Shown piece after piece: positions 4,019-29,566 of a DNA stretch of 32,000 nt. The translations under genes were made by a program, and so were the position numbers. Positions within the stretch are counted from its first letter, which is position 1, and each line of letters begins with the position of its first letter. Source of the stretch: Candidatus Methanoperedens sp. (GTDB lineage: Archaea > Halobacteriota > Methanosarcinia > Methanosarcinales > Methanoperedenaceae); contig JAPZAR010000027.1 of NCBI GenBank assembly GCA_027460535.1, positions 1 through 32,000 of the forward strand. Reading direction: 5' to 3'. Below the pieces are notes generated by a model that was not told where the DNA came from, did not search any database, and worked only from the letters and a program-made list of their open reading frames with translations.

Positions 4019-4547
4019 AAAGGTCGTTCCCGCGTTCCGTATGCGAGACTTCCGGATGCCACTGCACGCCATACAGAGGCTTTGTCTTGTGTTTCATGGC
4101 CTCAGTCTCGCAGATACGCGAACGCGCAAGCCTGGTGAAATCAGGCGGCAGAGAAGATACCTCGTCTGCGTGCGATGCCCATACATTCGTCCTGGGGCCG
4201 ATACGTTTTAGAATATCATCCTCATCGAGAATCTCTATCTCTACGGATGCATAGCCTCCTGCAGTGCCTTTTCTCACCGCTCCGCCAAAAGATAGCGCCA
4301 TCACCTGATGGCCAAGGCAAATACCAAGGATTGGAAGGTCAAGTTCCTTTACGTAACTGGCGCAATTACCTGCGCGCTCAAGCGTGGGTCCGCCGCTGAG
4401 TATAACACCGTCAGGTCCTTTCGAAAGGATTTCTTCCACAGTCGATGTGTTCTTCATCAGTTCCACCTCCTGGTCAAGATCCCGCACGGCGCGGTGTATC
4501 AGGTGGCAGAACTGGCCGTAGTTATTGATGACGATGATCTTTACCAT
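3984..4547 (-). CDS. guaA: GMP synthase (glutamine-hydrolysing) subunit A, class I glutamine amidotransferase
   Basis: It has the GATase triad context ILGICLGHQ and WHPE. At 187 aa it is a stand-alone subunit, as in archaea. Confidence 0.9.
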
Positions 4548-4603
4548 TCTGTTGTGAGATTGTTGTTTGGTTTTAAATATTATTCTATAGTTTGTTTGCC
4601 GAA

Positions 4604-5173
4604 TTAAGATTTATTTACAAGTTGTTGAGTCAAAAACCAGTATTCAAAGAGTTCTTTTTCTTTTTCGCCATAATTTTCGAATTTGTTCGATATCATATTC
4701 CAGAAATGATCGTTATGTTTTCTTTCAATCAAGTGGACCATTTCGTGAAAAATCACATATTCCATTAAATCATCTGGCAAGTACTTCAAAAGAGTATTGA
4801 TTGTAAGATTTTTCTTAGAACTGCAGCTTCCCCATTTTGATTTCATTTTCCTGAAATAAATGTTGCTAATGGTGATTTTTAATTCCTTTGAAATCTTTTC
4901 AACAAAAAAGTGTATTGACTGCTTGAATTCTTCATCTGTTCTTCTCAGTTCAAGTCTTTTTTTCCGTGCTTCCTCTAATGCCGCTGCTATCTCACTATTT
5001 CGTTTGTATATCCATTTTTTATGTTTTTCTATGATATCACTTTGATTTTCACAGTTCTTCGGCAAGACCAGAACCAGTTCGCCAGTTTTAAATTCCAGCC
5101 TTGGGTATCTTATGTTCCGATAAACTACTTCGTAGCTTAAAGTCGAATCACTGATTCTAATTTGGTTTACCAT
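4604..5173 (-). CDS. DUF45/YgjP-like (M48-type) zinc metallopeptidase
   Basis: It carries an HExxH motif (FHEMVHL). Its start overlaps the hsdR 3' end by 17 nt. Confidence 0.8.
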
Positions 5174-8100: not shown

Positions 8101-8174
8101 AAGCGCCAGCCTTTTTCAATGAGTTTTTCAATGATGTAATCCTCGACAAGGGATTTTTCAGAGAACTTTGGCAT
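5157..8174 (-). CDS. hsdR: Type I restriction enzyme R subunit
   Basis: Helicase motifs are present: motif I QGSGKTLT, motif II FIDEGHRS and motif VI QAIARTNRP. The start is trimmed to MPKFSEKSLVEDYIIEKL (ATG 8174), which removes the overlap with the upstream gene. Confidence 0.93.
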   Translation of the reverse strand: MPKFSEKSLVEDYIIEKLIEKGWRFVPANELERESFSEPLLLNNLVRAIKRLNSEKGIGDEELKHVLNELKLKGSGNEGLKQILNYLKFGVPIKFEKERIVKYVRLFDFEELDNNEFIVSRQVIYHGRDDIRTDIMLYVNGIPLVEFECKNPASFSENWFDAYRQIKDYEKIVPELYKYVQIGIASEQTAMYFPIVPWQDEIKVNQWKEEGKDSIDSAIEMLSKDILLDIIRNFMFFRVEMGNATKVIARYMQYRAARKIVERVSANLKGEDEKNKGLIWHWQGSGKTLTMIFAAHKLYHLKSLENPSIFFIVDRIELEEQLYTEFNSLDIVKPEIIGSIDELRKVLKHDEGKGKRGIMITLIHKFRVEELGELQKELEELSKQKETILTRKNVVAFIDEGHRSQYGTMAGQMKKILKNAFFFSLTGTPISKRGKDTYLEFSYPPEEKYLDRYFITDSIQDGFTVKLVYQPRLEKEVHLKKDMLETFLEVEFEELSDDIRDKVEEGVKKRLNAINMFLENPKRIELIAKDIAEHFKENVDGTFKAMVVAASRKACAYYKLYLDKWLPKEYSEVVMTYTKKDTEIVQHTSTESRARYGEKEIDEIRKEVIDKFKEEEYPKILIVTDMLLTGFDAPILQTMYLDKPLKEHRLLQAIARTNRPYKGIKEAGVILDYIGILKEFKRAFEIYSEEEIKGALSGMGSLREDFNMLLDGLLALFSHIPKESYDRLTMLRAIEVLTTDEENSKRFLEDYRELRKIFELLGPAEIKVERFSDYKWISSIYTFYMNTVLQSQLGHEMYVQKYFEKTLKYVHRTTELENLRKDLPVISFDENYLKDLEEKVKSKEEKAASIVFTLNRLVLVEKHKNPVYESLTDKVERILNLWKEKTKDFERIYTEGMEVFNKIEKLSQRQKELGFSDMEYALLLNLEKNFGEGSEFTRDVRELSERLRNHIFNNWAVQQTARKTVEREVRRFVRRYVKRYGLKLDELDSLYQNLMENIENYGKPN

Positions 8175-8179
8175 GGGTC

Positions 8180-9139
8180 TTATGACTTCTCCTTGCCCAT
8201 GCAGCATTTTTTGTATTTTTTCCCCGAACCACAGGGACATGGTTCATTTCTTCCGATCTTTTCTCTTTTAATTGTTTCATCATCCATTTCAGATTCAGGG
8301 TCATCCTCTCCGAGCCATGCGAAGTCCTCCTCTTCGGATTTTGAGCTGTGATCATCCAAACTTTCAATGCTCTCCCTGGAAAAATGGTCTAAAGGATCAC
8401 GCGTATTTCTCTTGATATCGTCACCGTCATCTGAACGCTTGATCCTCGATTCCACATCTTCTTCTTTCATGAAGATTTCCATGATCCTGCCCTCTTCAAA
8501 AGCCCTGTGTATTTCTGGCATAACGGACATATCGTGGAACCGAGCAAGGTCTTGAATTATCAGACTTGCGAATGTAATATCATTGGTTGTATTTAGCAAT
8601 TCTATAAGGTGTTTCACGACTCCATTTTTATAAGAAGGCTTGTTTCTCGACAGTATAACAAGAGCAGTCGTGGCTGTCCCTCGTGCAAAAGATTCCAGAG
8701 TTTCGTCTCTTGTGAATTCTTTGAGGGGCTCTATAGCCTCCTCACCGAAGGCAACAAGCAAGCTTGTGACATTTTCTGTCAGCCAATCATATAATTCAAA
8801 GTTCCTAAATCTGATAGTGTCCAGCAAGAGCGATAGTGCATTTTTACTTTTTATCAGGGCAAGTATGTGAATTGCATGGATCGGAGTCCAGCGATTTCCT
8901 GGAGCTATTTGGCTCCAGTATTGTCCATCCTGTATCAGCTTCCTAATATGAAAAACCGCATCCTCCCTTCCTGCGATCTCCTGTGCAAATTTTTTATTAA
9001 CATAAAGCCCCAGAGCAGTTAATCCCTCTATCAATTCTCCGGTTGAGATTTCATGCATATCTTTCATCATTAAATCCCAATCCATCCTGGTGTGGCTATT
9101 TATCAGATCCGCGAGATCTTCATCTTTTTCTATTGCCAT
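8180..9139 (-). CDS. SEC-C motif protein with helical-repeat (DUF1186-like) body and acidic linker
   Basis: The C-terminus carries [13 protein letters not shown]. The likely start is ATG at 9139 (MAIEKDEDL), because the track start at 9145 is TTG. The gene ends 5 nt before the hsdR start. Confidence 0.75.
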
Positions 9140-9141
9140 TT

Positions 9142-9276
9142 TCAATCCTTTTTTCCACGCATCCAGTTCACTATTTCAACCGCATCATCCATTTCTTTAA
9201 ATACCGGATGCTTGCACCATTCACCTCTTGTCTCTCGCATAATATTCTCCCATTCATTCACATTTTTCTCAAGCAT
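9142..9276 (-). CDS. Small 44-aa ORF ([44 protein letters not shown])
   Basis: It is too short for the ORF track. Its ATG overlaps the MNT stop (ATGCTTGA) and its stop lies 2 nt before the SEC-C protein ATG. No recognisable domain. Confidence 0.35.
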
Positions 9277-9562
9277 AGACAGCCTCCTCAATTATGTGAG
9301 GTTTTGTCAGAGGCTTTAACGCATCAGGAGTTACCAGATCAACCTTCGCCCCAAGCTTTTCGGTCAAGTAATCCTCAAGTTCTATGAACTTAAAGAAACT
9401 CACTGGCGCCTCAAACTGAACAAGCATGTCGATGTCGCTTGTTTTTGTTTGCTCTCCCCTCACGTAAGAGCCGAATATGCCTATGCTTTTTACTTTGAAT
9501 TTTTCCTTGAGGTTGGGGAGTTCTTTTTTCAGGACTTTCAGGATCTCATTTTTGCTTTTCAT
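9269..9562 (-). CDS. Minimal nucleotidyltransferase (MNT/MntA-like antitoxin family)
   Basis: It has the pol-beta NTase signature GIFGSYVRGEQTKTSDIDMLV at about 97 aa. Confidence 0.85.
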   Translation of the reverse strand: MKSKNEILKVLKKELPNLKEKFKVKSIGIFGSYVRGEQTKTSDIDMLVQFEAPVSFFKFIELEDYLTEKLGAKVDLVTPDALKPLTKPHIIEEAVYA

Positions 9563-9632
9563 TGTTTCACGCTTTTTGTATTTATGATTTTGATTATCTG
9601 GCGCTGTCCTTCAGAGTCTATAAGACCAGATA

Positions 9633-9959
9633 TCAAACTACCTCAATCATGAACTCCTTCTTAACCTCTTTAACCATTAGAAAATGTTTATCCTTCGTAA
9701 CAAGCTTCAATTTATTGTTCAATGCAACAGACGCGATCACCGAATCCACGGCTGGAATCGGTTTGCCGATTTTTAAAAGCTCTGTTGAAATTATTAAAGC
9801 AAGATGGTAGTCAGATTTTGACGGGAAAAGAACTCGAAGTTTGAGTTCCATTGCTTTTGGAAACTCTATAATGTTCAAAATGGTCGTATAGCCTTCGATT
9901 GTTTCCTTTTTCCTGTACGCATCGATTAATGTATTTGTGTCGTATAGACTCTCTTCCAC
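9633..9959 (-). CDS. vapC: PIN-domain ribonuclease toxin
   Basis: The four conserved acidic positions are present: YDTN, IIEF, AVDS and TKDKHF. Confidence 0.8.
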   Translation of the reverse strand: MEESLYDTNTLIDAYRKKETIEGYTTILNIIEFPKAMELKLRVLFPSKSDYHLALIISTELLKIGKPIPAVDSVIASVALNNKLKLVTKDKHFLMVKEVKKEFMIEVV

Positions 9960-10204
9960 TCTGCATCCCTCATCTTTTCATATCCTTTTTCAGCTTTCTC
10001 AAAACTCAGTTCGCTCAAGGTTTTTCTAAAATCATCGCCAAGCTCTTCAAGGAGGTCTTTAGTCGTCGTCTCAGAGCCTCTCTCTTCGAGCTTTCCAATA
10101 AACTCGGTTATAGCTTTTCTTACGACTTCGCTCCACCTTATTTCTTTATGTAGCTTCATTCTCGCATATACTTCGTCCGATATCGAAAGGGTTATGTTGG
10201 TCAT
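9926..10204 (-). CDS. vapB: Ribbon-helix-helix antitoxin
   Basis: The N-terminus shows an RHH pattern (ITLSISDEVYARMK...WSEVVRKAITEFI). The gene overlaps the vapC start. Confidence 0.65.
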   Translation of the reverse strand: MTNITLSISDEVYARMKLHKEIRWSEVVRKAITEFIGKLEERGSETTTKDLLEELGDDFRKTLSELSFEKAEKGYEKMRDAEWKRVYTTQIH

Positions 10205-10300
10205 AATCTTATTTATGTGATCTCACTTATTTAAGGATTTTCTTCATTATACATATTGTTCTATATGTAACACATTTATTCCATTATACTGATGCAATAA

Positions 10301-11521
10301 TTAATTTCGGATCTTAACTCTCTTCCTCCCAGTCAGCAGCTCATTCATAAGCCCCTTCTTCACCCTCTCCAGCTTCTCCTTCCTCCTGCGCTCAAGCTCC
10401 AGCTTCCTGTCAGCGGCGCTCAAAATCTCGGCGATGCGGCGCTGTTCGGAGAGAGGGGGAAGTCCAAATTTAAATTTGCTTATTTCCTTCCAAGAAGTTC
10501 TGGGATGGTTTGTTCCAGATGTTGCAGAAATTGAATTTTGAATAAATTGATTTGAATGAATTAAATATATAAGAAATTCTGCCAACGCTCTATTTTCAGC
10601 ATTGGTTAAAACTAATAAATCTGTTGAACAAATGCCATCAAAATCTGCTATAACAGCTTTGTCAAGATAAGGTCGTAGCTTTCCATATAATATATCTCCT
10701 CTGCGAAATCTAAATTTAGAACTTTTAACATCAGTATCTAACTGATATGTATGTATTTTTAGTTCACCTGGGTTTATGTGTTCCAATCCCACAAATTTAT
10801 TCTCTCCTTTTCCTGAAGGCATAGTGATTTCACTTCTATGGTTACATACATCCCCCAGCCTCGACACCCCCCATTCCTCCGGCACCCTCCCAACATCGCT
10901 CTCCTTAAACCTCTCATGCCCTATCCCCCTCGTCAGCAGCCTCTGCATCATCCCCTTCTTCAGGCGCTCCGTGCTCTCGATGGCGCCGCCCACCTTCTGG
11001 ATGGCGCTGTCAACCGTGCCCAGGACTTCGGCAATGCGGCGCTGTTCGGGGAGAGGGGGGAGGGGGATATTTATGTTGCTAACGATTGCTAAATTAAGGC
11101 CACTTCTATCATAATGCCCAGTCAAGTTTCTTATTTCCAAATATCTGTTTGATAAATTATAGTGCAGATATTCTGGAACAAGTTCCGAATTTGGTATCAT
11201 TATGGCAACAGATTGGCTACAGGCCATCGGTCTTTTTATTATGGCAGTTTTTCCTCTTGTTTGTCCCCTCCCGGATAAAGCAATAGCAACGGTGCCAGGC
11301 GGATGAATTTTTGCATTTGAGTTTTCTATACCCGACTGCGTAATTTTTTCTTCGGTATCATAAATATAAAGTTCTTTAATATCACCAGATTTAAGCCATT
11401 TTATAGTGCCTCCAAAATACTCTGGATGCATTGTACTTGGCGTCCCACCTGTCACTACTTTACAAATATCACCTATTCTTACCACTGCCCACTCCCCCGG
11501 TATCTCCCCGATTCCTGTCAT
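10301..11521 (-). CDS. hsdS: Type I restriction enzyme S (specificity) subunit
   Basis: It has two TRDs separated by duplicated conserved regions (LPPLPEQRRIAEVL and LPPLSEQRRIAEIL). The start is trimmed to MTGIGEIPGEWAVV, because the upstream 96 nt of the track ORF is GC-rich repeat sequence. Confidence 0.9.
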   Translation of the reverse strand: MTGIGEIPGEWAVVRIGDICKVVTGGTPSTMHPEYFGGTIKWLKSGDIKELYIYDTEEKITQSGIENSNAKIHPPGTVAIALSGRGQTRGKTAIIKRPMACSQSVAIMIPNSELVPEYLHYNLSNRYLEIRNLTGHYDRSGLNLAIVSNINIPLPPLPEQRRIAEVLGTVDSAIQKVGGAIESTERLKKGMMQRLLTRGIGHERFKESDVGRVPEEWGVSRLGDVCNHRSEITMPSGKGENKFVGLEHINPGELKIHTYQLDTDVKSSKFRFRRGDILYGKLRPYLDKAVIADFDGICSTDLLVLTNAENRALAEFLIYLIHSNQFIQNSISATSGTNHPRTSWKEISKFKFGLPPLSEQRRIAEILSAADRKLELERRRKEKLERVKKGLMNELLTGRKRVKIRN

Positions 11522-11621
11522 CCTCCCGCCCTCCATCCCCCCGCGCGGCTCAACCGCGGATGAAACGCAGGCTGCGGCGCGCGCCCAGGCGCCGGGGCGG
11601 AAGAGGCGTTTAACCACGGAG

Positions 11622-11986
11622 AGCGCAGAGGACGCAGAGATTCCTGCCGCGCAGCTTTGCGCTCTTTGCGTTCTTTGCGGTGAATTATTTTGCTAAAATC
11701 AGTTGCAGTAGGGTATCTGCGTTCATCTGTGTTCATCTGCGGTTCGTTACATTCAGGATGGAACACGGAGGCCACGGATGACACGGATGCACACGGATTA
11801 AAAATATCCGTGAAAATCCGTCCAATCCGTGTCATCCGTGTTCGATGTCGCTGCGGCACCTTTGATATATGTCCAATAAATGTCTGAAACAAGTCCGTTA
11901 TTTCAGCTTTTGCGTCTTTGATGCCCCTTTTGTGTCCCAATACTACCTTTCTAATCATCAACCCAATCATCAATCTAATCATCAAC
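11622..11986. repeat. Repeat-rich spacer of short-period tandem repeats and a nested inverted repeat
   Basis: Repeat families: 9-nt x2 (11622-11639), ctttgcgNt x3 (11655-11681), atctgYgttc x3 (11715-11745) and ctaatcatcaac-type 12-nt x3 (11951-11986). A perfect 16-bp inverted repeat (11773-11788 / 11825-11840) encloses a 7-bp inner hairpin (11792-11798 / 11806-11812). Confidence 0.9.
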
Positions 11987-13025
11987 CTTGTTTTAAGCGA
12001 TAGGAAAGGCTTCGCCCTCTTCCAGCCGGCTCAACAACATCTAATCTAACCAGCTTGATAAGCTCTTTATGAGCAGCCTGTGAAGAAATCTTGAACATCT
12101 CTCTTACGTCCCGATTCGTTATCCTCTCATTGCGGTTTATGAACTCCACAATCATCATCTGCCTCTCTGTAAGGGCAATCTGTCCTTTCTGTGCCTTTCT
12201 CAGCCTTTCGCTGCTGAGCCTTACAACCCTCTCCTTCACTGCTTCAATACTGACCCTGACCCCTTCCACGAAATACTCGAGCCAATTAGTTAAATCAAGT
12301 GTATTCTGGTCAACGCCTTGAAGCGCCCTGTAATAAGAAGGTCTGTCCGAATCGTAGTAATCATCTAAGCAGAAGAACTGCTTGGAATCAAAGCCCCGCA
12401 GGTAGAGTATCAGGGTAGCAAGGACGCGCGCCGTTCTGCCATTGCCGTCCACAAAAGGATGGATTCTAACCAATTCGTAGTGGGTTATCCCGGCTTCGAT
12501 GACGGGATCAAATGCATCGGCTTCGGGGGAGTTAAGCCACTCTAGCAGAGCCCTTACCAGCTTGGGGACGTCTTCATTTGAAGGCGGTCTGAAGAAAATC
12601 TCGCCGGTTAACCTGTTCCCAACAACTACGTAACGACTGCGATAGGCGCCGCAATCAGAAGGATTTTCCAAAGTTTCTTGTGTCAGCATTTTGTGGGCCT
12701 TCAAAAGGTCTTTCTCGGTAATCTCCTCGCCGTCGGTTAGCTTATCAATATTTTCCAGTGCCTCAAGATAGTTTAAGACCTCCAGCCTATCCTTTCGCTC
12801 TGCCATTACTTCGCGTCCGTGAGCCAAATCGCTGACTTGCTCAAGGGATAATCTATTTCCTTCTATACTGGTAGAGGAGTGGGCACTTCTCACGATTGCC
12901 TCGCGGCGAAGGGCAACTTCCCATTTAGGAACTAATGGGGAATTCAGAATTAGTTCTCTCGCGACGGCAATCTGTGTCAGATTATTCACCATCTTATCGG
13001 TATAACGAAAATTTGGTTTGAACAT
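11982..13025 (-). CDS. fic: Fic/DOC family protein (probable AMPylase), class II autoinhibited, with C-terminal wHTH
   Basis: It carries the Fic motif HPFVDGNGRTARV and the N-terminal inhibitory motif STSIEGN, i.e. (S/T)xxxE(G/N). Its ATG directly abuts the hsdM stop. Confidence 0.9.
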   Translation of the reverse strand: MFKPNFRYTDKMVNNLTQIAVARELILNSPLVPKWEVALRREAIVRSAHSSTSIEGNRLSLEQVSDLAHGREVMAERKDRLEVLNYLEALENIDKLTDGEEITEKDLLKAHKMLTQETLENPSDCGAYRSRYVVVGNRLTGEIFFRPPSNEDVPKLVRALLEWLNSPEADAFDPVIEAGITHYELVRIHPFVDGNGRTARVLATLILYLRGFDSKQFFCLDDYYDSDRPSYYRALQGVDQNTLDLTNWLEYFVEGVRVSIEAVKERVVRLSSERLRKAQKGQIALTERQMMIVEFINRNERITNRDVREMFKISSQAAHKELIKLVRLDVVEPAGRGRSLSYRLKQG

Positions 13026-14801
13026 TTACATGACCTCATTCAGATACCCCTGGATATTTTCCTCTACCTTTGCGATTTCTTTCTCTATGCTACGCAACTC
13101 CTCCCATTCCCTGCCTATATCTATTTCCTCCTGCGCCTCCTGTGGAAAAACATAGAGCGTAACGTTCAGGTTATAATCATTCTCTTTTATCTCATCCAGA
13201 GGAACTGCGCGAACAAACCCATCGCTAGCGCCAAATTTCCTGTAAGCCTCCGCAATCCTCTGTATATGCACCTCGCCGAGCCTGTTGAGCTTTCTTACCT
13301 CGGGGTGCTGCTCGAACTCGCTGCTGGCGTTAATGAACAGAACCTTGCCTTTCCTCTCCTCCGGCTTATTCTTATTCAGAAATATCAGGGCGCCCGGCGC
13401 TCCTGTATTATAAAATAGTTTCTCAGGCAGCAGTATCACTCCATCGATTAAATCATCCTCCAGCATCCTGCTCCTGATTGCCTGCTCCTTGCCGCCCCTG
13501 AAAAGGCAGCCGTTATCAATAACCACACCCACCCTTCCAGTATCATCCTTTGCGCTTGCAAGCATGTGCTGCACCCATGCCCAGTCTGCTGATTGCTTCG
13601 GGACAAAACCGTATCTGAAGCGCTGCTTCCAGAACTCGCCCTTCTTTATGACTTCCTCATCATAGCCATCCTGGTTCCATGGAGGATTGGCAATGACCAC
13701 ATCGAATTGTTTCAGCCCCTCACCTTCTTTGAATTTGGGATATAGCAAAGTATCGCCATATGCAAGATTGGCATTTTTTATATCATGGATATAAAGGTTC
13801 ATCCTGCCAAGCGCAAGAGTCTTCTGGTTTGCCTCCTGGCCATAAAGGAACAACCTATCAACCTCTGACTTCCCATACTTGTCTTCAACATGCTTGTACG
13901 AAACGATCAGCATACCGTTAGAGGCTGATGCAGGGTCATACACGCTCTCTCCCGGCTTGGGGTCAAGAATCTCGATCAGGAGCTTGATAACCTCTCTCGG
14001 AGTGTAAACCTCTCCCTCTTTTGCTTTCATCGGCGCGAAATATCTTAAAATCCACTCGTATGCATCCCCGAGAATATCGGGCGAGACATGGTGGAGCTTC
14101 TGAATACTGAAAAGTTCTACAAGCTGCCGCAATATTTCGGCATTTTCCCTGCTTGTGGTGAACTGGATAAAATCAACATTATCAAGGACATCCTTTAAAT
14201 GGGGATTTCGCTCAGCTAATGTCTTCAATGCATGGGATAGCTTTTCTGGAAGTGTACTTACATCTTTTCTGATATTATCCCACAAGAACTCGGGAGGAAA
14301 GTCAAAATCGTGATACGCGGAATTTTTGGCTTCTTCCTTTGCCTCATCCTCGCTTAGACCATCCTCAATAGCTTCCCTATATGCTTTCTCGAATTCAAGC
14401 TCCCACTTATCGCTGAATCTCTTCAGGAACAGGAGGATTAAAATGAACTTATAGTCAACCCTTGTCCTGATGAGATCTGCTGCCTTTTTTAATAACCTTT
14501 CAACCTCTCCCCGGTCTAACTTATTATTGGTAATAGCGAAAATCTCACCAATGATTTTTTCCTTGCTCTTTAGTTTGTATATCCTTTTTCTTGCATCATT
14601 TGGATCCGGTTCGTCGTTGAGCCATCCGGCCTTTCTTATTTCAGAAAGGTAAACGGGTATTTCTTCCCTTCTATCTTTATTTTTCTCTTCCAATATTTTT
14701 GCAGCTTGCTCAATATTAAATTCAGAATCGCTGAATGAATCCCATAACAAAGAATATCTTTTCTCGACCCATGTTGGTACTTTAAATTCCACCTTTGCCA
14801 T
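13026..14801 (-). CDS. hsdM: Type I restriction enzyme M subunit (N6-adenine methyltransferase)
   Basis: It carries motif IV VIANPPWN, motif I region VYDPASASNGML and the HsdM N-domain LLFLKRFSD. ATG 14801 is preferred over the TTG at 14846. Confidence 0.92.
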   Translation of the reverse strand: MAKVEFKVPTWVEKRYSLLWDSFSDSEFNIEQAAKILEEKNKDRREEIPVYLSEIRKAGWLNDEPDPNDARKRIYKLKSKEKIIGEIFAITNNKLDRGEVERLLKKAADLIRTRVDYKFILILLFLKRFSDKWELEFEKAYREAIEDGLSEDEAKEEAKNSAYHDFDFPPEFLWDNIRKDVSTLPEKLSHALKTLAERNPHLKDVLDNVDFIQFTTSRENAEILRQLVELFSIQKLHHVSPDILGDAYEWILRYFAPMKAKEGEVYTPREVIKLLIEILDPKPGESVYDPASASNGMLIVSYKHVEDKYGKSEVDRLFLYGQEANQKTLALGRMNLYIHDIKNANLAYGDTLLYPKFKEGEGLKQFDVVIANPPWNQDGYDEEVIKKGEFWKQRFRYGFVPKQSADWAWVQHMLASAKDDTGRVGVVIDNGCLFRGGKEQAIRSRMLEDDLIDGVILLPEKLFYNTGAPGALIFLNKNKPEERKGKVLFINASSEFEQHPEVRKLNRLGEVHIQRIAEAYRKFGASDGFVRAVPLDEIKENDYNLNVTLYVFPQEAQEEIDIGREWEELRSIEKEIAKVEENIQGYLNEVM

Positions 14802-15116
14802 GAATGCTCTATTGACTAATAAGCTATTTAAATTTTTGCTTATCAATAAGTAATATATATATTTGCTTATCTTTTATCCTTATTCCAATTGATTGATAAT
14901 TTGACTGATATATAACATAAAATAAAATTTACGTTAGTTGTACGGGACAAAAATTAAAGATGTACTTTTAGAGTCAAATACATAATTCAAGCAAGAACTC
15001 AAACTGGAATAACCTTGAAAGGTAAGAACTGCCAAATATAAGAATTATGCAACTCAAGGTGTCCCGGCGTCTAAATTCTTTTAAGGGGAATCTAACTTCT
15101 GTTGGTCGCCCTGTTA

Positions 15117-20589: not shown

Positions 20590-20662
20590 GCCGCCATAAC
20601 TCAGCTGGTAGAGTGCCTGGCTGTTAACCAGGATGTCACAGGTTCGAGCCCTGTTGGCGGCG
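20590..20662 (+). tRNA. tRNA-Asn (GTT)
   Basis: It folds as a cloverleaf. The acceptor stem is GCCGCCA/TGGCGGC, the anticodon stem CCTGG/CCAGG with loop CTGTTAA, and the T-arm contains GGTTCGAGCC. No CCA is encoded. Confidence 0.9.
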
Positions 20663-20685
20663 TACACCGGACTAGTTTTTCTTGA

Positions 20686-20760
20686 GGGCCCGTAGCTTAG
20701 TCCGGTTAGAGCGCCCGGCTCATAACCGGGCGGTCACCGGTTCAAATCCGGTCGGGCCCA
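20686..20760 (+). tRNA. tRNA with CAT anticodon (elongator Met or Ile2)
   Basis: The acceptor stem is GGGCCCG/CGGGCCC, the anticodon stem CCCGG/CCGGG with loop CTCATAA, and the T-arm contains GGTTCAAATCC. The G1:C72 pair argues against an initiator. Confidence 0.88.
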
Positions 20761-23765: not shown

Positions 23766-24508
23766 AACCTGTTAATGCAGTAATCACAAAAGTAGTTGAT
23801 GAGACTCCCACCATCCGGACTTTCTTCTTTGATACCTCCTTTGAATCAATTCCGGGGCAATTCGTGATGGTCTGGATCAGGGGAGTGGATGAGATCCCCA
23901 TGGCACTTTCATACGAAAATGCTATAACGGTGCAGAAGGTCGGGCCTGCGACATCAGCATTGTTCGAGCTTGAAGAATGCGACTCGATAGGCATTAGAGG
24001 GCCTTACGGCAAGGGATTTGAGATAAAGAAAGGGCACGTTCTGATGATCGCGGGTGGAGTTGGGGCAGCTCCCCTGGCGCCGCTGGCTGAAAAGGCCTAT
24101 GAGGAGAGCGTAAAGGTTACGACGCTGCTCGGCGCAAAGACAAAGGATGAGTTGCTGTTCAGGAAGCGCTTTGAAGCAGCAGGAGAGGTACGGGTTGCCA
24201 CTGACGATGGCTCGGAAGGAATGCATGGGTATGTGACACAGTTGCTCGATGATGCAAAAAGCTATAATCAGATATACTGCTGCGGCCCCGAGGTCATGAT
24301 GAAAAAAGTACTCGATAAAGTCCCGACGTCAAAAGCACAGTTCAGCCTCCATCGCTATATCAAATGCGGATTGGGGATATGCGGGGCGTGCTGTGTGGAC
24401 GGGCTGCGGGTTTGTAAGGACGGGCCTGTGTTCTCTGGCGATGTTTTGAAGAAGACCGAGTTTGGGATTTACAGGAGGAACGAGTGCGGGGAGAGGGTTA
24501 GGGTGTGA
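23762..24508 (+). CDS. pyrK: Dihydroorotate dehydrogenase electron-transfer subunit
   Basis: It has an FAD/NAD-binding fold and a C-terminal 2Fe-2S Cys cluster (CGLGICGACCVDGLRVC). It overlaps pyrD by 4 nt. Confidence 0.9.
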   Translation: MKPVNAVITKVVDETPTIRTFFFDTSFESIPGQFVMVWIRGVDEIPMALSYENAITVQKVGPATSALFELEECDSIGIRGPYGKGFEIKKGHVLMIAGGVGAAPLAPLAEKAYEESVKVTTLLGAKTKDELLFRKRFEAAGEVRVATDDGSEGMHGYVTQLLDDAKSYNQIYCCGPEVMMKKVLDKVPTSKAQFSLHRYIKCGLGICGACCVDGLRVCKDGPVFSGDVLKKTEFGIYRRNECGERVRV

Positions 24509-24514
24509 ATATTT

Positions 24515-24985
24515 ATGCCAGAAAATAGCCCACCTACATATTCCAAATTAATTCGTAAACTTCCTTATAAATTGCAGAGACGATTTGAAAGCTTTGGAAA
24601 TTATGTAGAAGGTATTTTGAGTGAAAAAGAGCCAAAAGGGGGATGGAATCTTTCCGAAGAAGATATTGATGGGATTAAACTTATTGCATTAATTTTTTCA
24701 TTAAAAGTCTTCCTTAAACAAGGAACAATTATAACAAAACAGGCAATTAGAGTTTTTGGCGTTTTGGGCGCTGATGGTTTCACTGTAGGCAATGCCATTT
24801 TTACAGACCAAAGTGAGGATACATATAGGGGAGAGAAATTATCCAAAGAGCTGAATAAGTTGCTAATTGAGACAAACCAATTGGATTTTTTACAAGAAGA
24901 TAAATCCATTTCTCAGGTAATATTAGAACTAGCAAGGAGGAGTTCAAATAAACAATCTATGGATAGATCAAAGAAGAATACGTAG
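24515..24985 (+). CDS. Hypothetical protein (156 aa), first gene of the AT-rich island
   Basis: A clean ORF whose ATG lies 6 nt after the pyrK stop. No recognisable motif. Confidence 0.5.
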   Translation: MPENSPPTYSKLIRKLPYKLQRRFESFGNYVEGILSEKEPKGGWNLSEEDIDGIKLIALIFSLKVFLKQGTIITKQAIRVFGVLGADGFTVGNAIFTDQSEDTYRGEKLSKELNKLLIETNQLDFLQEDKSISQVILELARRSSNKQSMDRSKKNT

Positions 24986-24989
24986 ATTA

Positions 24990-25670
24990 TTGGCGGACTT
25001 TTTTGAATACAAACAAAAAGATTTAACGACTTTCGGAAACACAGTAAATCAGACATTTGAAGCTTTTGTTTTCGCATCTATAATAAATTGGTATCAAGAA
25101 AATGGTTGGAGAATCAGGTTTGAACATCCTAAGAATTATGGGGGAAAAGTTCGTCTTAAGTATTCAACACGAGGTAAACCAGAAAATTATACTTATGCAG
25201 TTGCTGTCAAAGGAAAAAAACAAATTGAAATTCGACATAATATTAGAATACGTTCAGCTCATAGTGATTATGAAAGTCCGGTAGCCTCATTTGTTGTTGA
25301 TGTAGGAGTATTAAAAGTTCATAGTGCTGAAAATTTTTCAACATATGATTCTGTTGAAAATAGAAATTTAATTACTTTTTCAGAAGCAAAGCATATGTCA
25401 GCTTTTGCAGAATTGATTGGCGGGTTTATCGGAATAGTTCATGAATTATTGCCTAAACGATTAAAAAGGCACAAAACACCAATAGGGAACCCTATTCATC
25501 CACACCCTTTTTTATTTGTGTCTGGATTTTCAAATCCGTCTGCAAAAGGTGTTATTGCAACGATACTCGAAAGAGGCTATCGTATTAGTATAATCGATCG
25601 TGATTCGAAAGATTTGTATGGATTACCACTTCAGGAAATCCCCACTAAACCCGCGAGTATAAGAAGATGA
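24990..25670 (+). CDS. Candidate PD-(D/E)xK-fold nuclease (226 aa)
   Basis: It uses a TTG start 4 nt after the upstream stop. An N-terminal helix carries a Glu (TFEAFVFASII), followed by FVVDVGVL (D) and ITFSEAKHM (ExK) in the expected order and spacing. Confidence 0.45.
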   Translation: MADFFEYKQKDLTTFGNTVNQTFEAFVFASIINWYQENGWRIRFEHPKNYGGKVRLKYSTRGKPENYTYAVAVKGKKQIEIRHNIRIRSAHSDYESPVASFVVDVGVLKVHSAENFSTYDSVENRNLITFSEAKHMSAFAELIGGFIGIVHELLPKRLKRHKTPIGNPIHPHPFLFVSGFSNPSAKGVIATILERGYRISIIDRDSKDLYGLPLQEIPTKPASIRR

Positions 25671-25704
25671 CCTTAAAAGTAAACTGATTAGTATTACTGT
25701 AATT

Positions 25705-26625
25705 TCAATCTTTTGATTTATCAAAATCAAAAATCGTCGGTATCTTTTCATTCTTTTTTGTTTCTAATTTCCCCCATTCTTCTAAAGTTTTTATATATTT
25801 ATTTAAATATTTATATAATTTCTTATCGTCCATGACATAATCCATAATGTTTTTTGCAGCCGTCTCATTATTACTCCCATAAATCAGATAATATATTGTT
25901 CTCTGTGTTTGTTTTAAGGACAGAACATGCCTTATTGGTACACTTTTAACGACCGAATAACCAGCTATCTCATTTAACCTTTTCTTGTACAAATTAACAA
26001 TTTCTTCTTCAAATTCACGAATTTCCAATGATCCGTTTACCTTTTTTTCATAGAGTTGTTTCCAATAATCACAGCCAAAGAAATTTGTAATACCTTCAGG
26101 ATCATTTTCCCAATTATTATACGCATTCATAGTATAAAATGGCAGATGAATAATAATGTCGGTACCATAAGGTTTTTCATGTTGAGCAATATTTTCAACA
26201 GTACTCCATTTTAGTTCATTGTATTTTGTGATATCCAACAAAACAGTGACTACAGTGAATGAGGGAATTTTATCTAGAACTTCAACAACTTTTATGTTTG
26301 CATCTCCTCTCAAACATTTCACATTTTTTATTTCACCAATATAGCTTTCTAAATCACTAAAATTTTTAGGATCATTTTCTATAAAAACACAGCTTATTTT
26401 TTTTGATTTTTCAGGTTGCAGTTTTTCAATTGCTATTAGAGGAGAACCAGCAATCAATTTATTTATTCCCCAATCAGAATCTTCAAAATGTACTTTTCCC
26501 GGGCCCGAGTATCCATCTATATAGAGAAAATTTGGCTTTCGCTCGGATTCAAATAAAATCTTACACGCCCCAAGATATTTTTCAATGATTTCATATTTTT
26601 TCAGAGTATGTCTAACTATGTCCAA
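25705..26625 (-). CDS. tcmP: TcmP-like protein (three-Cys-motif partner family), Rossmann/methyltransferase-like
   Basis: The N-terminus reads HTLKKYEIIEKYL, followed by FLYIDGYSGPG (SAM motif-I-like), VFIENDP and LRGDA. It uses a TTG start 6 nt after the radical SAM gene's stop. The family assignment is from memory of family motifs. Confidence 0.6.
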   Translation of the reverse strand: MDIVRHTLKKYEIIEKYLGACKILFESERKPNFLYIDGYSGPGKVHFEDSDWGINKLIAGSPLIAIEKLQPEKSKKISCVFIENDPKNFSDLESYIGEIKNVKCLRGDANIKVVEVLDKIPSFTVVTVLLDITKYNELKWSTVENIAQHEKPYGTDIIIHLPFYTMNAYNNWENDPEGITNFFGCDYWKQLYEKKVNGSLEIREFEEEIVNLYKKRLNEIAGYSVVKSVPIRHVLSLKQTQRTIYYLIYGSNNETAAKNIMDYVMDDKKLYKYLNKYIKTLEEWGKLETKKNEKIPTIFDFDKSKD

Positions 26626-26631
26626 TTAATA

Positions 26632-27585
26632 TCACCAAATACAATTGCACCCAATTTTCTTATAATCTAACCCGATCTTTTCCCACATTTCAACAGTCTC
26701 CTTACATAATGCAACATTCGTATAATCATATTTATTTTTCAAATGATCAATAACCGTAGAATACATTTCATACCTGATGTCAGAATCTATCTTTTTACCC
26801 CAATTTGATTTTTCAGATAGGAAAGTTACCCAGGTTTTATCTTTAGAGTTATTTATCGTGCTTTGAAGCCCTCTCAGCGAACCGAGAGTAATCCTTTCAG
26901 GAGTAAATTGCTCAAATATCATATCGACAAGCTTTGTATAATGCGTATCCCATTCGAAAACAGGAACCATCGGGTCAATTCGAATTCTTGTTTCATACCC
27001 TGCATCGCTAACTTTTCTTGCAGCTTTAATCCTTTCTTCAACTCCCGGAGCTTTTTCCCACTTTTTTGACACTGCTGGAGCATTCATACTAAAACTGACA
27101 ATAACATTTCTATGCTCATCGATTTTTAATAAATTTTCAACATTAGTTGACTTCGTTAAGAAAAGCACTTTATGCTTTTTTTGAGCTTCAAACAGGGGAA
27201 TAATGAATTTTGAAAAAGGGTCATGAGAGTTCTCAGATAATAAAGAATCACTTAATTCGCCTGTATTCAATACTTCTGGAAGAGAGCCATTATTCAAAAA
27301 AGTGCTGACATGTTCTTTCACTTTAAAGCGGTCTTTTTGTCTTGGCTGCTTTCCTGTAAATCTGAATGTCCCCTGCAAAAAACACCATGCACAGTCGTAT
27401 GCACATCCATTTGCCCATTTCAACTCTAAAAAATGAGGACAGATGACATCAGTCTTTTTCTCAGGCAGCGGGGTCTTTTCAAATCTGCAAATTATTGAAC
27501 CATCCCCAACTTTCTGGACAAGACTTTTTTTAGAACCATCAAGCGTCGGATAGACTTGTTTTTTTATCTGCATTGATTGTTCCAT
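26632..27585 (-). CDS. Radical SAM enzyme, spore photoproduct lyase (SplB/COG1533)-like
   Basis: A CxxxCxxC cluster sits in GCAYDCAWCFLQ (compare SplB GCMGHCHYCYLQ). It is colinear with SplB at FLTKSTNVENLL and at VSFSMNAPAV...RIKAARKVSDAGYETRIRIDPMVP. Confidence 0.8.
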   Translation of the reverse strand: MEQSMQIKKQVYPTLDGSKKSLVQKVGDGSIICRFEKTPLPEKKTDVICPHFLELKWANGCAYDCAWCFLQGTFRFTGKQPRQKDRFKVKEHVSTFLNNGSLPEVLNTGELSDSLLSENSHDPFSKFIIPLFEAQKKHKVLFLTKSTNVENLLKIDEHRNVIVSFSMNAPAVSKKWEKAPGVEERIKAARKVSDAGYETRIRIDPMVPVFEWDTHYTKLVDMIFEQFTPERITLGSLRGLQSTINNSKDKTWVTFLSEKSNWGKKIDSDIRYEMYSTVIDHLKNKYDYTNVALCKETVEMWEKIGLDYKKIGCNCIW

Positions 27586-27707
27586 TGATTTTGATCCTCA
27601 TAAATATATCTTATTATTATCTTGAAGCTATTTAATTACAAATTATAGAGCACTCTATATACAAAACTTTGGAGAGCGGAGTGAAAGTATTTTCTCTTAA
27701 TTATAAT

Positions 27708-27737
27708 ATCTGCGTTCATCCGCGTTCATCTGCAGTC
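27708..27737 (+). repeat. Second copy of the atctgcgttcatcYgYgttcatctgc motif
   Basis: 24 of its first 26 nt match 11715-11740. It lies 20 nt beyond the truncated mazF stop. Confidence 0.85.
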
Positions 27738-27757
27738 ATAATATCATCTCCTCTTCT

Positions 27758-27928
27758 TTAGATAACCTTTTCTAAGCTTGAAGTGATAGGAAGAATGGTT
27801 ACAGTTTCAGCCAATTCATTATTAATATCGTTTGAAATTACAACGGCAGGTCTGGTTTTCCCAATCTCAGATCCTTCAATTGGGTCGAGTTTGACCCAAT
27901 AAATATTACCCCTTTTAATCAATTCCAT
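27758..27928 (-). pseudogene. mazF: MazF/PemK-like toxin, C-terminally truncated
   Basis: The sequence MELIKRGNIYWVKLDPIEGSEIGKTRPAVVISND...ILPITSSLEKVI stops at about 56 aa. Family members run to about 110 aa, so the C-terminal half is absent. Confidence 0.6.
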
Positions 27929-28138
27929 CTCCAGAGGTTGAATCCCATTCAAGAGCAAGCTTCTTATCCTCTGGCCTTCTCAGACTATAACCTTCGCTTA
28001 ATTCTTTTACGAGAGTCAATTTTTCTTCTTTCTCGATCCTTTCTTTGATCGCTTCGGCCATGAAGGCAGATTTATTCTTAACATTTTTTAACATTTCTGC
28101 AATCTCTGCCTGCAAGTTATGATTCTAATTGTATTCAT
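27915..28138 (-). pseudogene. RHH-type antitoxin, apparently frameshifted
   Basis: ATG 28138 opens MNTIRII (the RHH beta-strand) in one frame. The helices (AEIAEMLKNV...KSAFMAEAIKERI) continue in the frame of track ORF 27915..28115, which begins with TTG. Confidence 0.4.
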
Positions 28139-28225
28139 TATAGACCTCAATCGATGCATTATTGGCCTGTATGAATGATGTATTTAAAGATGCCTTCCAG
28201 CATTATAAAAAAAATAAAAACAGTC

Positions 28226-29566
28226 TCACCTCCCCTTCTCCAGCTTCCTCACCGCAAAATCCGCCGCCTTGTTCAGTGCATCATAATTCTCCGCCACCAT
28301 GGGGCAGTAAGCCATCTCGGTCTGGCTGAGAGCATACACATCCATTCCGCATTTTATTGCAATGGATAGCACGTTCACGCGCGCCCCTGCACTCTCGCCT
28401 ATAACCTGCCCTCCCAGTAACTTGCCGGTCTTTGCATCCGCGATTATTTTGACCGTAATATCTTTTGCGCCGGGATAATACTCTGGCTTGTTCTTTCCTC
28501 GTGCCTTTCCCGAGATCACTTTGTATCCTGCGGCCTCAGCGAAGAACTCACTGAAACCTGTTGCTCCCACTTCCATATCACCGATAAGCGAAACATAAGT
28601 GGATAGCGCCCCCTCGTATGTATCATACCCGCCTGCGGCATTCGTGCCCGCCACCATCCCCTGCCTGTATGCCGCTGAGGAGAGCTGCATCATCGTTGGC
28701 CTGTGGTTTATGAGACTTACGGTCTCGATGCAATCGCCCACGGCGTAGATATCCTTGATATTCGTCTCCATCCTCGCATTCGTCCTGATGCCCCATTTCC
28801 CTATCTCGATCCCCGCATTTTTTGCCAGCTCAAAGTTCGCTCTCACACCCGAAGCGAGGATGACCATATCCGTGCCCATAACTTCCTCACCTACTGTAAC
28901 TGATTCTATAGGAGCGCCGTTTATACTGCTCACGCTTTTATTCATCACCAGTTTTATCCCTTTTCCTGCAAGCGATTCTTCAACTATTTTTGCCATATCC
29001 CGGTCAAGTGCGCGGGGCAGGGCATATGAAAGCATCTCGACCACAGTTACATCAAGACCTTTTTTCAACAAAGCGACAGCGATCTCAAGACCTATAGGCC
29101 CCGCGCCCACTACCACTGCTTTTTTGGATTCCTCAGCATGCTCCATGATTTTCTGGGCACTCTCAAGGTCGTGAAGCACAAAAACGCCTTTACCGACATT
29201 TTCCTGTGCCCCCTTAACCGGTGGGATGAATGGCGCCGCACCTGTTGCTAATATGAGCGAGTCGTATGGGACCGATGCGGTTTCCAGGGTCTTCAGGTTC
29301 TTTACTACGACTTTTTTCTCTGCTGTAATTATTGCCTGCGCTTCATGCTCAAGAAGTTTTGTTATTTGTTTATCTGTTGGCAAAGAGAATTTGAGATCAT
29401 CAAGACTCACGATCCCTTCTATCGCAAAAGGCATACCGCAGGGGGAAAACATCTCGTACGATCTTTTCTCGATAATTGTTATTGAAGCATCAGGGTTCGT
29501 TCTCCGTATCGCAAGAGAGGCTGCAAAACCTCCACTTCCAAGACCTAAAATTATTACTTTCGGCAT
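28226..29566 (-). CDS. Pyridine nucleotide-disulfide oxidoreductase (CoA-disulfide reductase / NADH oxidase family)
   Basis: It carries GLGSGGFAA (FAD), the redox Cys context FSPCGMPF, VVGAGPIGLE (NAD) and AVGDC. The start is trimmed to MPKVIILG (ATG 29566). Confidence 0.85.
   Translation of the reverse strand: MPKVIILGLGSGGFAASLAIRRTNPDASITIIEKRSYEMFSPCGMPFAIEGIVSLDDLKFSLPTDKQITKLLEHEAQAIITAEKKVVVKNLKTLETASVPYDSLILATGAAPFIPPVKGAQENVGKGVFVLHDLESAQKIMEHAEESKKAVVVGAGPIGLEIAVALLKKGLDVTVVEMLSYALPRALDRDMAKIVEESLAGKGIKLVMNKSVSSINGAPIESVTVGEEVMGTDMVILASGVRANFELAKNAGIEIGKWGIRTNARMETNIKDIYAVGDCIETVSLINHRPTMMQLSSAAYRQGMVAGTNAAGGYDTYEGALSTYVSLIGDMEVGATGFSEFFAEAAGYKVISGKARGKNKPEYYPGAKDITVKIIADAKTGKLLGGQVIGESAGARVNVLSIAIKCGMDVYALSQTEMAYCPMVAENYDALNKAADFAVRKLEKGR

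Follow-up and report, generated by a model that had tools for sequence, protein, structure and literature searches.

The stretch of DNA analyzed here, called the window throughout, comprises the first 32,000 nucleotides of contig JAPZAR010000027.1 from an assembly of Candidatus Methanoperedens sp. (GCA_027460535.1). Downstream of pyrK it carries four genes in two convergent pairs (Table 1): orfA and orfB on one strand and, on the other, a gene for a radical S-adenosylmethionine (SAM) enzyme resembling spore photoproduct lyase (SPL), followed by a gene for a TcmP protein. An earlier note on this DNA had proposed that the four genes make up one modification-plus-restriction system on an AT-rich island. 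What it observed is accurate, and its four-gene interpretation is not supported by our analysis. The interval is a variable slot between the housekeeping genes pyrK and CoADR that holds three unrelated items, and we are highly confident of the architectural part of this reading, namely that two autonomous modules, orfA-orfB and radical SAM-TcmP, sit in a variable slot.

Gene calling bore out the four open reading frames (ORFs), coordinates included, and the GC counts that had been made by hand were reproduced exactly (0.60, 0.333 and 0.267). The abrupt change in base composition is equally real, with a GC content of 0.33 at 24509-27757 compared with 0.51 across pyrD-pyrK and 0.49 in CoADR. Each two-gene unit is genuine, and both pairs exist elsewhere as single fused ORFs. 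The second gene of each unit is called from a TTG codon that lies 4 nt (orfB) or 6 nt (TcmP) past the stop of the upstream gene. A search for tRNA genes and Rfam features as integration markers found none within 24000-28600.

Table 1. Features of the pyrK-CoADR interval and of the type I restriction-modification (R-M) locus in the window
Feature	Position	Strand	Remark
Variable cassette slot, pyrK stop to radical SAM stop	24509..26631		Holds orfA, orfB and the type-1 TcmP allele here
orfA	24515-24985	+	156 aa
Ancestral orfB 5' end, overlapping the orfA 3' end	24948..24989	+	
orfB	24990-25670	+	226 aa from the called TTG
TcmP, type-1 allele	25705-26625	-	306 aa, TTG start
SPL-like radical SAM enzyme	26632-27585	-	317 aa
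Conserved radical SAM upstream region, presumed promoter and 5' region	27586..27736	-	Ends in the decamer-type repeat 27707-27736
Lineage-specific insertion, decayed MazEF-type toxin-antitoxin module	27737..28214	-	
Type I R-M locus	5157-14846	-	HsdR 5157-8240, HsdS 10301-11617, HsdM 13026-14846; complete

The description of the interval as an island holds for one part of it and fails for another. The radical SAM gene lies in the same slot, beside pyrK, beside CoADR or between both, in at least 10 other Methanoperedens assemblies, and the proteins encoded there are 85-95% identical. All of these loci were retrieved through their radical SAM or TcmP gene, so the comparison covers occupied sites only. 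Nucleotide homology reaches 82-88% over the radical SAM gene and ~150 nt upstream of it, compared with 77-81% in the flanking CoADR and pyrK genes, and this block extends to window positions 27725-27736 in four of the loci (L009-L012). At its other end, homology with seven other Methanoperedens loci stops at 26628-26642, the radical SAM stop, and it resumes at 24508-24510, the pyrK stop, wherever a locus reaches pyrK. The content between these two points differs by genome, and it is this cassette that varies. The TcmP genes at the slot fall into at least four allele classes with only 21-32% identity between classes, while the ratio of nonsynonymous to synonymous divergence (dN/dS) within an allele class is 0.09-0.15, indicating purifying selection; TcmP is missing from L013 and reduced to a 94-aa remnant in L016. 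The radical SAM gene is under purifying selection as well (dN/dS 0.06-0.08 among relatives) and shows about half of the synonymous divergence of pyrK.

We also rejected a recent origin of the island as read from its GC content. Relatives throughout the genus have the slot filled, and in 60 of 62 loci, in all phyla, the radical SAM-TcmP module has a lower GC content than the DNA on either side (median difference -7.9 points). The GC step is therefore a property of the module and no sign of recent arrival. Identical copies of the AT-rich interval are present on metagenome contigs of up to 90 kb.

Related genes were also seen elsewhere in Methanoperedens. At 6803-11687 of L018, on the same 640-kb contig as L011, lies a second radical SAM paralog (69% identity) for which no TcmP could be detected; its neighbors are an N6_N4 DNA methyltransferase and two uncharacterized ORFs (531 and 291 aa). 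In L014 and L008, a radical SAM-TcmP pair of the window type is found away from the pyrK-CoADR setting, with TcmP proteins 89-90% identical. L014 is a 17.6-kb Methanoperedens contig of unusually low GC (0.36) on which orfB is reduced to a 37-aa remnant, and it may be an extrachromosomal element.

The relationship between the two modules was assessed from their distribution. For the radical SAM family, 80 genomic loci were fetched from Dehalococcoidia, Zixibacteria, Omnitrophota, Nitrospirota, Bathyarchaeia, ANME-1, Thermococcus and other taxa, and the census totals 84 (74 of them non-redundant). For the orfB family, 80 metagenomic loci were fetched for a census of 82. Both sets were searched with tblastn and iterated hidden Markov models. 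The neighborhood conservation that a four-gene system calls for is not found: among the 74 non-redundant loci, orfA-orfB lies beside an SPL-like radical SAM gene only in the window's lineage, and none of the 82 orfB loci contains an SPL-like radical SAM gene. With the two pairs failing to co-occur outside that lineage, this distribution shows that orfA-orfB and radical SAM-TcmP are independent modules.

If the four genes nevertheless formed one system, radical SAM-TcmP would modify host DNA and orfA-orfB would cut unmodified DNA. There are three independent settings, each with its own radical SAM family, where orfA-orfB does lie directly beside a TcmP-radical SAM pair: convergent to the SPL-like pair in the window, divergent from a TcmP-DUF5131 pair in L117 (4142-6154), and divergent from TcmP with a generic PF04055 radical SAM gene in L105 (4588-6490). 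Two TcmP neighbors among the ~150 ORFs flanking orfA-orfB exceed uniform chance, because TcmP is rare (455 of 1.84 billion cluster representatives in a single-sequence search), and the restriction-endonuclease fold predicted for orfB would suit the cutting role. However, neither TcmP nor a radical SAM gene accompanies orfA-orfB at 80 of the 82 orfB loci, the SPL-like radical SAM-TcmP pair is found without orfA-orfB at every locus outside the window's lineage, and no gene is conserved as a third component. Within the lineage, the window is the one locus of its TcmP class that has an intact orfA-orfB, and there orfB has lost its ATG start. In L088, orfA is accompanied by an orfB that keeps its ATG but is frameshifted downstream, beside an intact radical SAM-TcmP pair; L090 and L181, with the same TcmP allele type, have the intact pair and neither orfA nor orfB. 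The general clustering of defense genes in islands can account for the three juxtapositions. We therefore regard a single four-gene system as quite unlikely, with residual support for a loose, facultative partnership of orfA-orfB with TcmP-radical SAM pairs.

Within the first module, orfA gave no hit above threshold against Pfam, NCBIfam, PADLOC or PDB, and a 45-sequence profile as query did not change this. In 65 of the 82 orfB loci, a homolog of orfA immediately precedes orfB in the same orientation, usually with overlapping ends; seven further loci are cut by a contig end, and the two genes are fused in L143 and L152. Compared with L088, orfA has a dN/dS of 0.24. The orfB product belongs to an unnamed family with 155 homologs of ~45% identity in Chloroflexota, Planctomycetota and Bacteroidota, and has no close relatives in IMG/VR. 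Its likeness to PD-(D/E)xK proteins, noticed earlier, is upheld by Foldseek and by a catalytic signature. The AlphaFold2 model (pLDDT 86.6) matched BsoBI best (E 2.5e-4, Foldseek probability 1.0), followed by NucC, AF1548, Cas4, LlaBIII and Cfr10I, with TM-scores of 0.3-0.4. Residues E24, D104, E132-x-K134 and H135 are invariant in 35 sequences, and the catalytic residues lie in helix 19-37 and in strands 100-109 and 127-134 of the model. As modeled, the assignment of orfB as a putative PD-(D/E)xK-fold nuclease stands.

Translational coupling through the TTG starts had also been suggested for both units. The spacing and the TTG codons are as described, but for orfB the called TTG is a fallback that removes 14 residues, because the native ATG has mutated to ATA (24948-24950). 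No ATG, GTG or TTG occurs between the in-frame stop at 24930 and position 24990. The N-terminal peptide conserved in the family is still encoded in frame (INNLWIDQRRIRRL), as found by comparing the in-frame translation of 24933-25049 with P0122 (MEKVWIDQERTRR...) and L088 (MEKVWIDQERIRRS; ATG GAA AAA GTA TGG...). Neighbors of orfA-orfB in other genomes include type I and type III R-M genes, prokaryotic Argonaute (pAgo), Dsr1-like, GajB, TIR and pPIWI-RE genes, a relaxase and a recombinase, so that the pair resides in defense islands and on mobile elements. We consider orfA-orfB a separate candidate defense or addiction module that is decaying in Methanoperedens.

The radical SAM enzyme passes the Pfam SPL model PF20903 with 57.3 bits (cut-off 27), in agreement with its earlier placement in the SPL family as opposed to a metabolic or cofactor family. 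It also matches PF04055, and not PF07505. The family has 2110 homologs, with 58-65% identity across bacterial and archaeal phyla. The CxxxCxxC motif, C61-AYD-C65-AW-C68 in the window protein, aligns to C90/C94/C97 of SPL, and four further cysteines (C49, C294, C313 and C315) are invariant in the family. A PDB search with a 23-sequence family profile returned SPL as the sole match (E 7.5e-14), restricted to core residues 57-229; the N- and C-terminal regions do not align to SPL. The SPL enzyme SplB repairs 5-thyminyl-5,6-dihydrothymine in DNA, with Cys140 (Geobacillus thermodenitrificans numbering; Cys141 in Bacillus subtilis) as H-atom donor. At this position the window protein has Ser112, and the family consensus has Ala. 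Scores against the NCBIfam models photo_TT_lyase (TIGR04070, an equivalog) and TIGR03886 are 67.3 and 47.2 bits, below their cut-offs of 400 and 437.55. Because of the sub-cut-off scores, the core-only match, the replaced Cys140 and the extra invariant cysteines, the enzyme is best classed as SPL-like and not as an SPL orthologue; a true SplB identity was rejected on score and on the missing Cys140.

A role in DNA repair would make the enzyme an SPL-like lyase that reverses thymine-dimer-type lesions or others accessible to radical chemistry, and TcmP would recognize the lesion or act as an accessory factor. SPL is its sole PDB relative, it passes the Pfam SPL model, and the hosts are strict anaerobes in which radical SAM repair is feasible. 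These points are set against scores that fall far under the SplB equivalog cut-offs (67 against 400 bits, 47 against 437 bits), a Ser or Ala in place of Cys140, termini that do not align, and four invariant cysteines without counterpart in the SPL-aligned stretch. Moreover, a sequence-independent repair enzyme should need no hypervariable partner, and the hosts are not spore formers. We assign very little probability to such a repair function. An origin of the radical SAM gene in phages or plasmids was likewise rejected, as viruses hardly ever carry the family (5 of 2.9 million IMG/VR contigs) and it has no close relatives in GenBank phages or PLSDB.

The partner protein matches the TcmP family model TIGR04474 with 137.6 bits (cut-off 53) over profile positions 2-260 of 263, which confirms that it had been correctly recognized as a TcmP-like Rossmann protein. 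Alignment of 34 partners from many phyla revealed the family motifs YxDxFAGPG, GSPLIA and FxDPFG; G43, G60 and D131 never vary, and D37, G41 and P132 seldom do (at least 90% of members have P132). The corresponding motifs of the window allele are YIDGYSGPG, GSPLIA and LLDITKY; SAM-binding motif I is kept, and the aspartate of motif IV is kept without the proline and the aromatic residues. The family profile weakly matches RsmD-like methylases and RlmJ, and in a Foldseek search the 14 best matches of the AlphaFold2 model were without exception RlmJ or its DUF519 homolog (best RlmJ E 7e-5). RlmJ is the 23S rRNA m6A2030 methyltransferase. According to the model, TcmP has an RlmJ-type, SAM-binding class I methyltransferase fold. 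The Pfam GMT-wHTH (winged helix-turn-helix) domain is present at the C-terminus in 9 of the 34 partners. In the PADLOC collection, the candidate models PDC-M41A and PDC-M30A match 32 and 27 of the 34, and the window protein matches PDC-M41A at 1e-12.

For the census of pairs, the TcmP profile was iterated with the radical SAM portion trimmed off the TcmP-radical SAM fusion ORFs. A TcmP-like gene adjoins or is fused to the radical SAM gene in 68 of the 84 loci, from more than 15 phyla, and 17 of the 84 are full single-ORF fusions of 606-730 aa. What we take to be the classical partner of TcmP (TIGR04474) is the three-Cys-motif protein DUF5131/Gp37-Gp68 (PF07505). With SPL-like, DUF5131 and generic PF04055 pairs all observed, TcmP has partners from at least three radical SAM classes. 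As judged from genome organization, the adjacency, the fusions and the further partners of TcmP (DUF5131 in L117, a generic radical SAM protein in L105) show a functional coupling between the radical SAM enzyme and TcmP. RadicalSAM.org groups DUF5131 and SPL in one megacluster, as 5-2 and 5-3 (PMC9477430).

The earlier remark that no function has been assigned to the TcmP pairing agrees with the searchable literature, in which none was found, and TcmP, DUF5131, PDC-M30/M41 and the family accessions are mentioned there in annotation tables only. None of the TcmP, DUF5131 or PDC terms was found in the accessible part of the supplements of Millman et al. 2022. That TcmP goes together with a three-Cys partner is already annotated as a genomic association (NCBIfam TIGR04474); our searches turned up no description of the SPL-like partner, the fusions or the allele-swap pattern. 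When the window proteins were screened against PADLOC-DB v2.0.0 up to E 1, the sole match in the interval was candidate PDC-M41A on TcmP, with none for orfA, orfB or the radical SAM enzyme, consistent with the expectation that no known system is present. The SPL-like pairing is thus not what PADLOC models, because the window radical SAM protein matches none of its models.

Several variants of the pair were observed. At 7995-11273 in L092-L094 (IMG/VR), two SPL-like radical SAM paralogs of 321 and 370 aa stand in tandem and a TcmP gene comes after them in convergent orientation; a tandem paralog layout also occurs in L022, L045 and L059 (Bathyarchaeia). The radical SAM ORFs of L058 (7863-8957) and L077 (7890-8927) open with a short TcmP-like N-terminal remnant (FFKxKRPWSxIKD), which suggests that TcmP was deleted from a former fusion. 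In L077 this ORF overlaps the end of an HsdS-like gene, a call that is based on a sequence motif only.

Clustering of neighboring genes, for which annotation was summarized as family counts, revealed no third gene conserved beside radical SAM-TcmP, and the recurrent neighbors are lineage-specific housekeeping genes. The nearest non-syntenic neighbors are most often N6 DNA methyltransferases and Eco57I/type IIG restriction-methyltransferases (7-9 of 127 ORFs in 74 loci), often located directly upstream of TcmP; ResIII, N6_N4_Mtase and Schlafen-AlbA_2 are also among them. The defense-type context noticed in the window is therefore seen for both modules, with R-M genes near radical SAM-TcmP in other phyla and R-M, pAgo, TIR and GajB genes near orfA-orfB. 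In Dehalococcoidia (L031, L033, L036, L044, L046, L048 and L086), the pair is located between mtnA (IF-2B family) and MTAP (PNP_UDP_1), and a type IIG R-M gene shares the slot in some genomes (L086) but is lacking from it in others (L031). Like the pyrK-CoADR interval, this site is a variable hotspot flanked by core genes. Flanking enzymes of the mtnA/MTAP type also salvage 5'-deoxyadenosine, a radical SAM by-product, and the position could reflect either a hotspot or a functional link.

Taken together, we propose that radical SAM-TcmP modifies targeted bases of a nucleic acid, probably DNA, with the specificity determined by TcmP, and that the module serves in marking or defense. We give this functional proposal, drawn from comparative sequence analysis, roughly an even chance. 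The radical SAM enzyme and TcmP would form a complex, in which TcmP recognizes a specific nucleic-acid site, most likely in DNA, and presents or flips out the target base; the radical SAM enzyme would then modify the presented base by means of a 5'-deoxyadenosyl radical. Replacement of TcmP beside a near-constant radical SAM gene would shift the target specificity, as in the allele turnover of R-M systems, and the module may serve to mark self from non-self or to defend the host. DNA is favored as the substrate because of the wHTH domains, the DNA methyltransferase and R-M neighbors, the relationship to SPL and the R-M-like allele replacement. Marking or defense is favored over a housekeeping role because TcmP is replaced wholesale beside a nearly unchanged radical SAM gene.

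A number of observations weigh against this proposal. No TcmP is detectable in 16 of the 84 loci (4 of the 16 have too little upstream sequence to tell), and radical SAM genes persist without it, for example in L013 and L018. The low synonymous divergence of the radical SAM gene compared with pyrK may reflect AT-biased codon constraint rather than recombination. In the window allele, motif IV reads DITKY in place of the family's DPFG, a form that is conserved within its allele class, and Pfam detects no wHTH in the window protein. The TcmP model itself is of moderate confidence (pLDDT 65.6 overall, 80-91 in the core) and is built on a shallow alignment. R-M neighbors are found at only ~10% of loci. 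The pair is also chromosomally stable within lineages and lacks a conserved nuclease partner, which is unusual for restriction-type defense.

The nearest structures to TcmP, RlmJ and RsmD-type methylases, are rRNA methyltransferases, which makes RNA as the substrate a serious alternative, and RlmN and Cfr provide a precedent for radical SAM enzymes acting on rRNA. The pair could thus modify rRNA or tRNA, with TcmP in the manner of RlmJ/RsmD and the radical SAM enzyme in the manner of RlmN/Cfr, perhaps conferring resistance to a toxin or antibiotic that targets the ribosome. Conservation of the radical SAM enzyme across domains at 58-65% identity and its strong purifying selection fit a universal substrate, and the stable chromosomal position without a nuclease is in line with it. 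However, TcmP alleles that are 21-32% identical beside radical SAM enzymes that are 85-95% identical are hard to reconcile with a fixed RNA target. Many TcmP homologs carry a wHTH, the neighbors are DNA methyltransferases and R-M genes and not translation genes, and the sole solved relative of the radical SAM family acts on DNA. The module is furthermore patchy in distribution, AT-rich in nearly all hosts and matched by PADLOC defense candidates. On balance we find rRNA or tRNA modification by the pair unlikely.

Prokaryotic viperins and the recently reported radical SAM defense system Ophion (10.1101/2025.09.30.679545) use radical SAM chemistry on small molecules, and the pair might similarly make a modified nucleotide or other small molecule instead of modifying a polymer, with the nucleotide-binding Rossmann fold of TcmP being compatible with such a role. 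The PADLOC screen found no similarity to viperin or Ophion components, the relatives act on polymers (SPL on DNA, RlmJ on RNA), and the wHTH domains and R-M-like allele turnover point to recognition of nucleic-acid sequence. We judge a small-molecule product highly improbable. Identity with a known radical SAM defense system was rejected too, as Ophion differs in composition and there was no PADLOC match.

If the module does modify bases as proposed, radical SAM chemistry would be aimed at specific DNA sites by a methyltransferase-like adaptor, and a new base modification could exist in anaerobes that include the methane-oxidizing Methanoperedens, ANME-1, Bathyarchaeia and Dehalococcoidia. One chromosomal slot offers a natural experiment, with near-identical radical SAM genes beside at least four unrelated TcmP alleles; allele-specific modified motifs are therefore expected in existing long-read data from Methanoperedens enrichments. 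In a tentative extension, which we think possible and somewhat doubtful, the SPL-like, DUF5131 and generic pairings would together form a new class of sequence-targeted radical SAM nucleic-acid modifiers, in which a methyltransferase-fold subunit hands a particular DNA base to the radical SAM active site, to lay down a new epigenetic mark or to damage foreign DNA at specific sites; their specificity would be swapped through TcmP, in a radical-chemistry counterpart of R-M specificity switching, and orfA-orfB-type nucleases would occasionally be recruited as readers or effectors. Independently of function, the analysis corrects a tempting four-gene reading and defines two modules, radical SAM-TcmP and orfA-orfB, in function-agnostic terms for defense-system catalogs.

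At the CoADR side of the interval, the decayed toxin-antitoxin module that had been placed at the border was confirmed. Its MazF ORF (27758-27958) matches PemK_toxin at 3e-16 over only profile positions 1-48 of 109, and a 66-aa ORF (27915-28115) lies where the antitoxin would be expected. In L011, homology to CoADR passes straight into the radical SAM block and leaves no intervening DNA. As far as its sequence indicates, the MazEF remnant is dead and is an insertion specific to the window's lineage. The repeat shared with the type I R-M region, to which the earlier note had pointed as a further border feature, exists at 11714-11743 and 27707-27736 (30 nt, 90% identity) but carries little weight. 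It is a short intergenic run of GATGAACRCR decamers, and we judged it weak evidence for a mobile-element boundary. The copy at 27707-27736 has its end precisely at the outer limit of the conserved block upstream of the radical SAM gene, the point at which the MazEF remnant is inserted. Elsewhere in the window, hsdS contains a 56-nt internal direct repeat (at 10407 and 11007), low-GC patches are found at 4501-6000 and 14501-15000, and a tandem array with a 27-nt period and at least seven copies occupies positions 1-270. Genes for tRNA-Asn and tRNA-Met are located at 20590-20760, on the upstream side of the interval and separated from it by ~4 kb.

Among known systems, orfB is most comparable to BsoBI (1DC1), NucC (6P7P) and Cfr10I, with which it shares the restriction-endonuclease-like fold and the E...D...ExK signature. 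In contrast to these, it reaches TM-scores of only 0.3-0.4 and has no sequence-level similarity to them, and the window copy is without a native start codon. Unlike type II restriction endonucleases, orfB always has the small orfA partner and no methyltransferase. The radical SAM enzyme shares with SplB (TIGR04070; PDB 4FHD) the CxxxCxxC radical SAM core and the Pfam SPL model, and SplB is its sole solved relative by sequence. It differs in having Ser or Ala for Cys140, four added invariant cysteines and other termini, in its obligate TcmP partner, and in hosts that are non-sporulating anaerobes and archaea.

For TcmP, the best structural match of the model is RlmJ (PF04378/DUF519; PDB 4BLV, 6QDX), which has the same Rossmann fold and the common motifs Y-L-D-x-H/F-A-G-x-G and P/D-G-S-P-L-I-A. 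The identity between the two is ~16%. RlmJ is a conserved, stand-alone housekeeping protein, whereas TcmP is paired with or fused to a radical SAM enzyme, is hypervariable and often has a C-terminal wHTH, and the window allele is without the proline and aromatic residues of motif IV. The PADLOC candidates PDC-M41A and PDC-M30A match TcmP partners, including the window protein (PDC-M41A), but are candidate models and not validated systems. In gene organization, the TcmP/DUF5131 pairing is a parallel, as the window TcmP likewise has a Cys-motif radical SAM-type enzyme encoded immediately beside it in the same orientation; here, in contrast, the partner is SPL-like (PF20903), and the SPL-like pair also exists as one fused protein.

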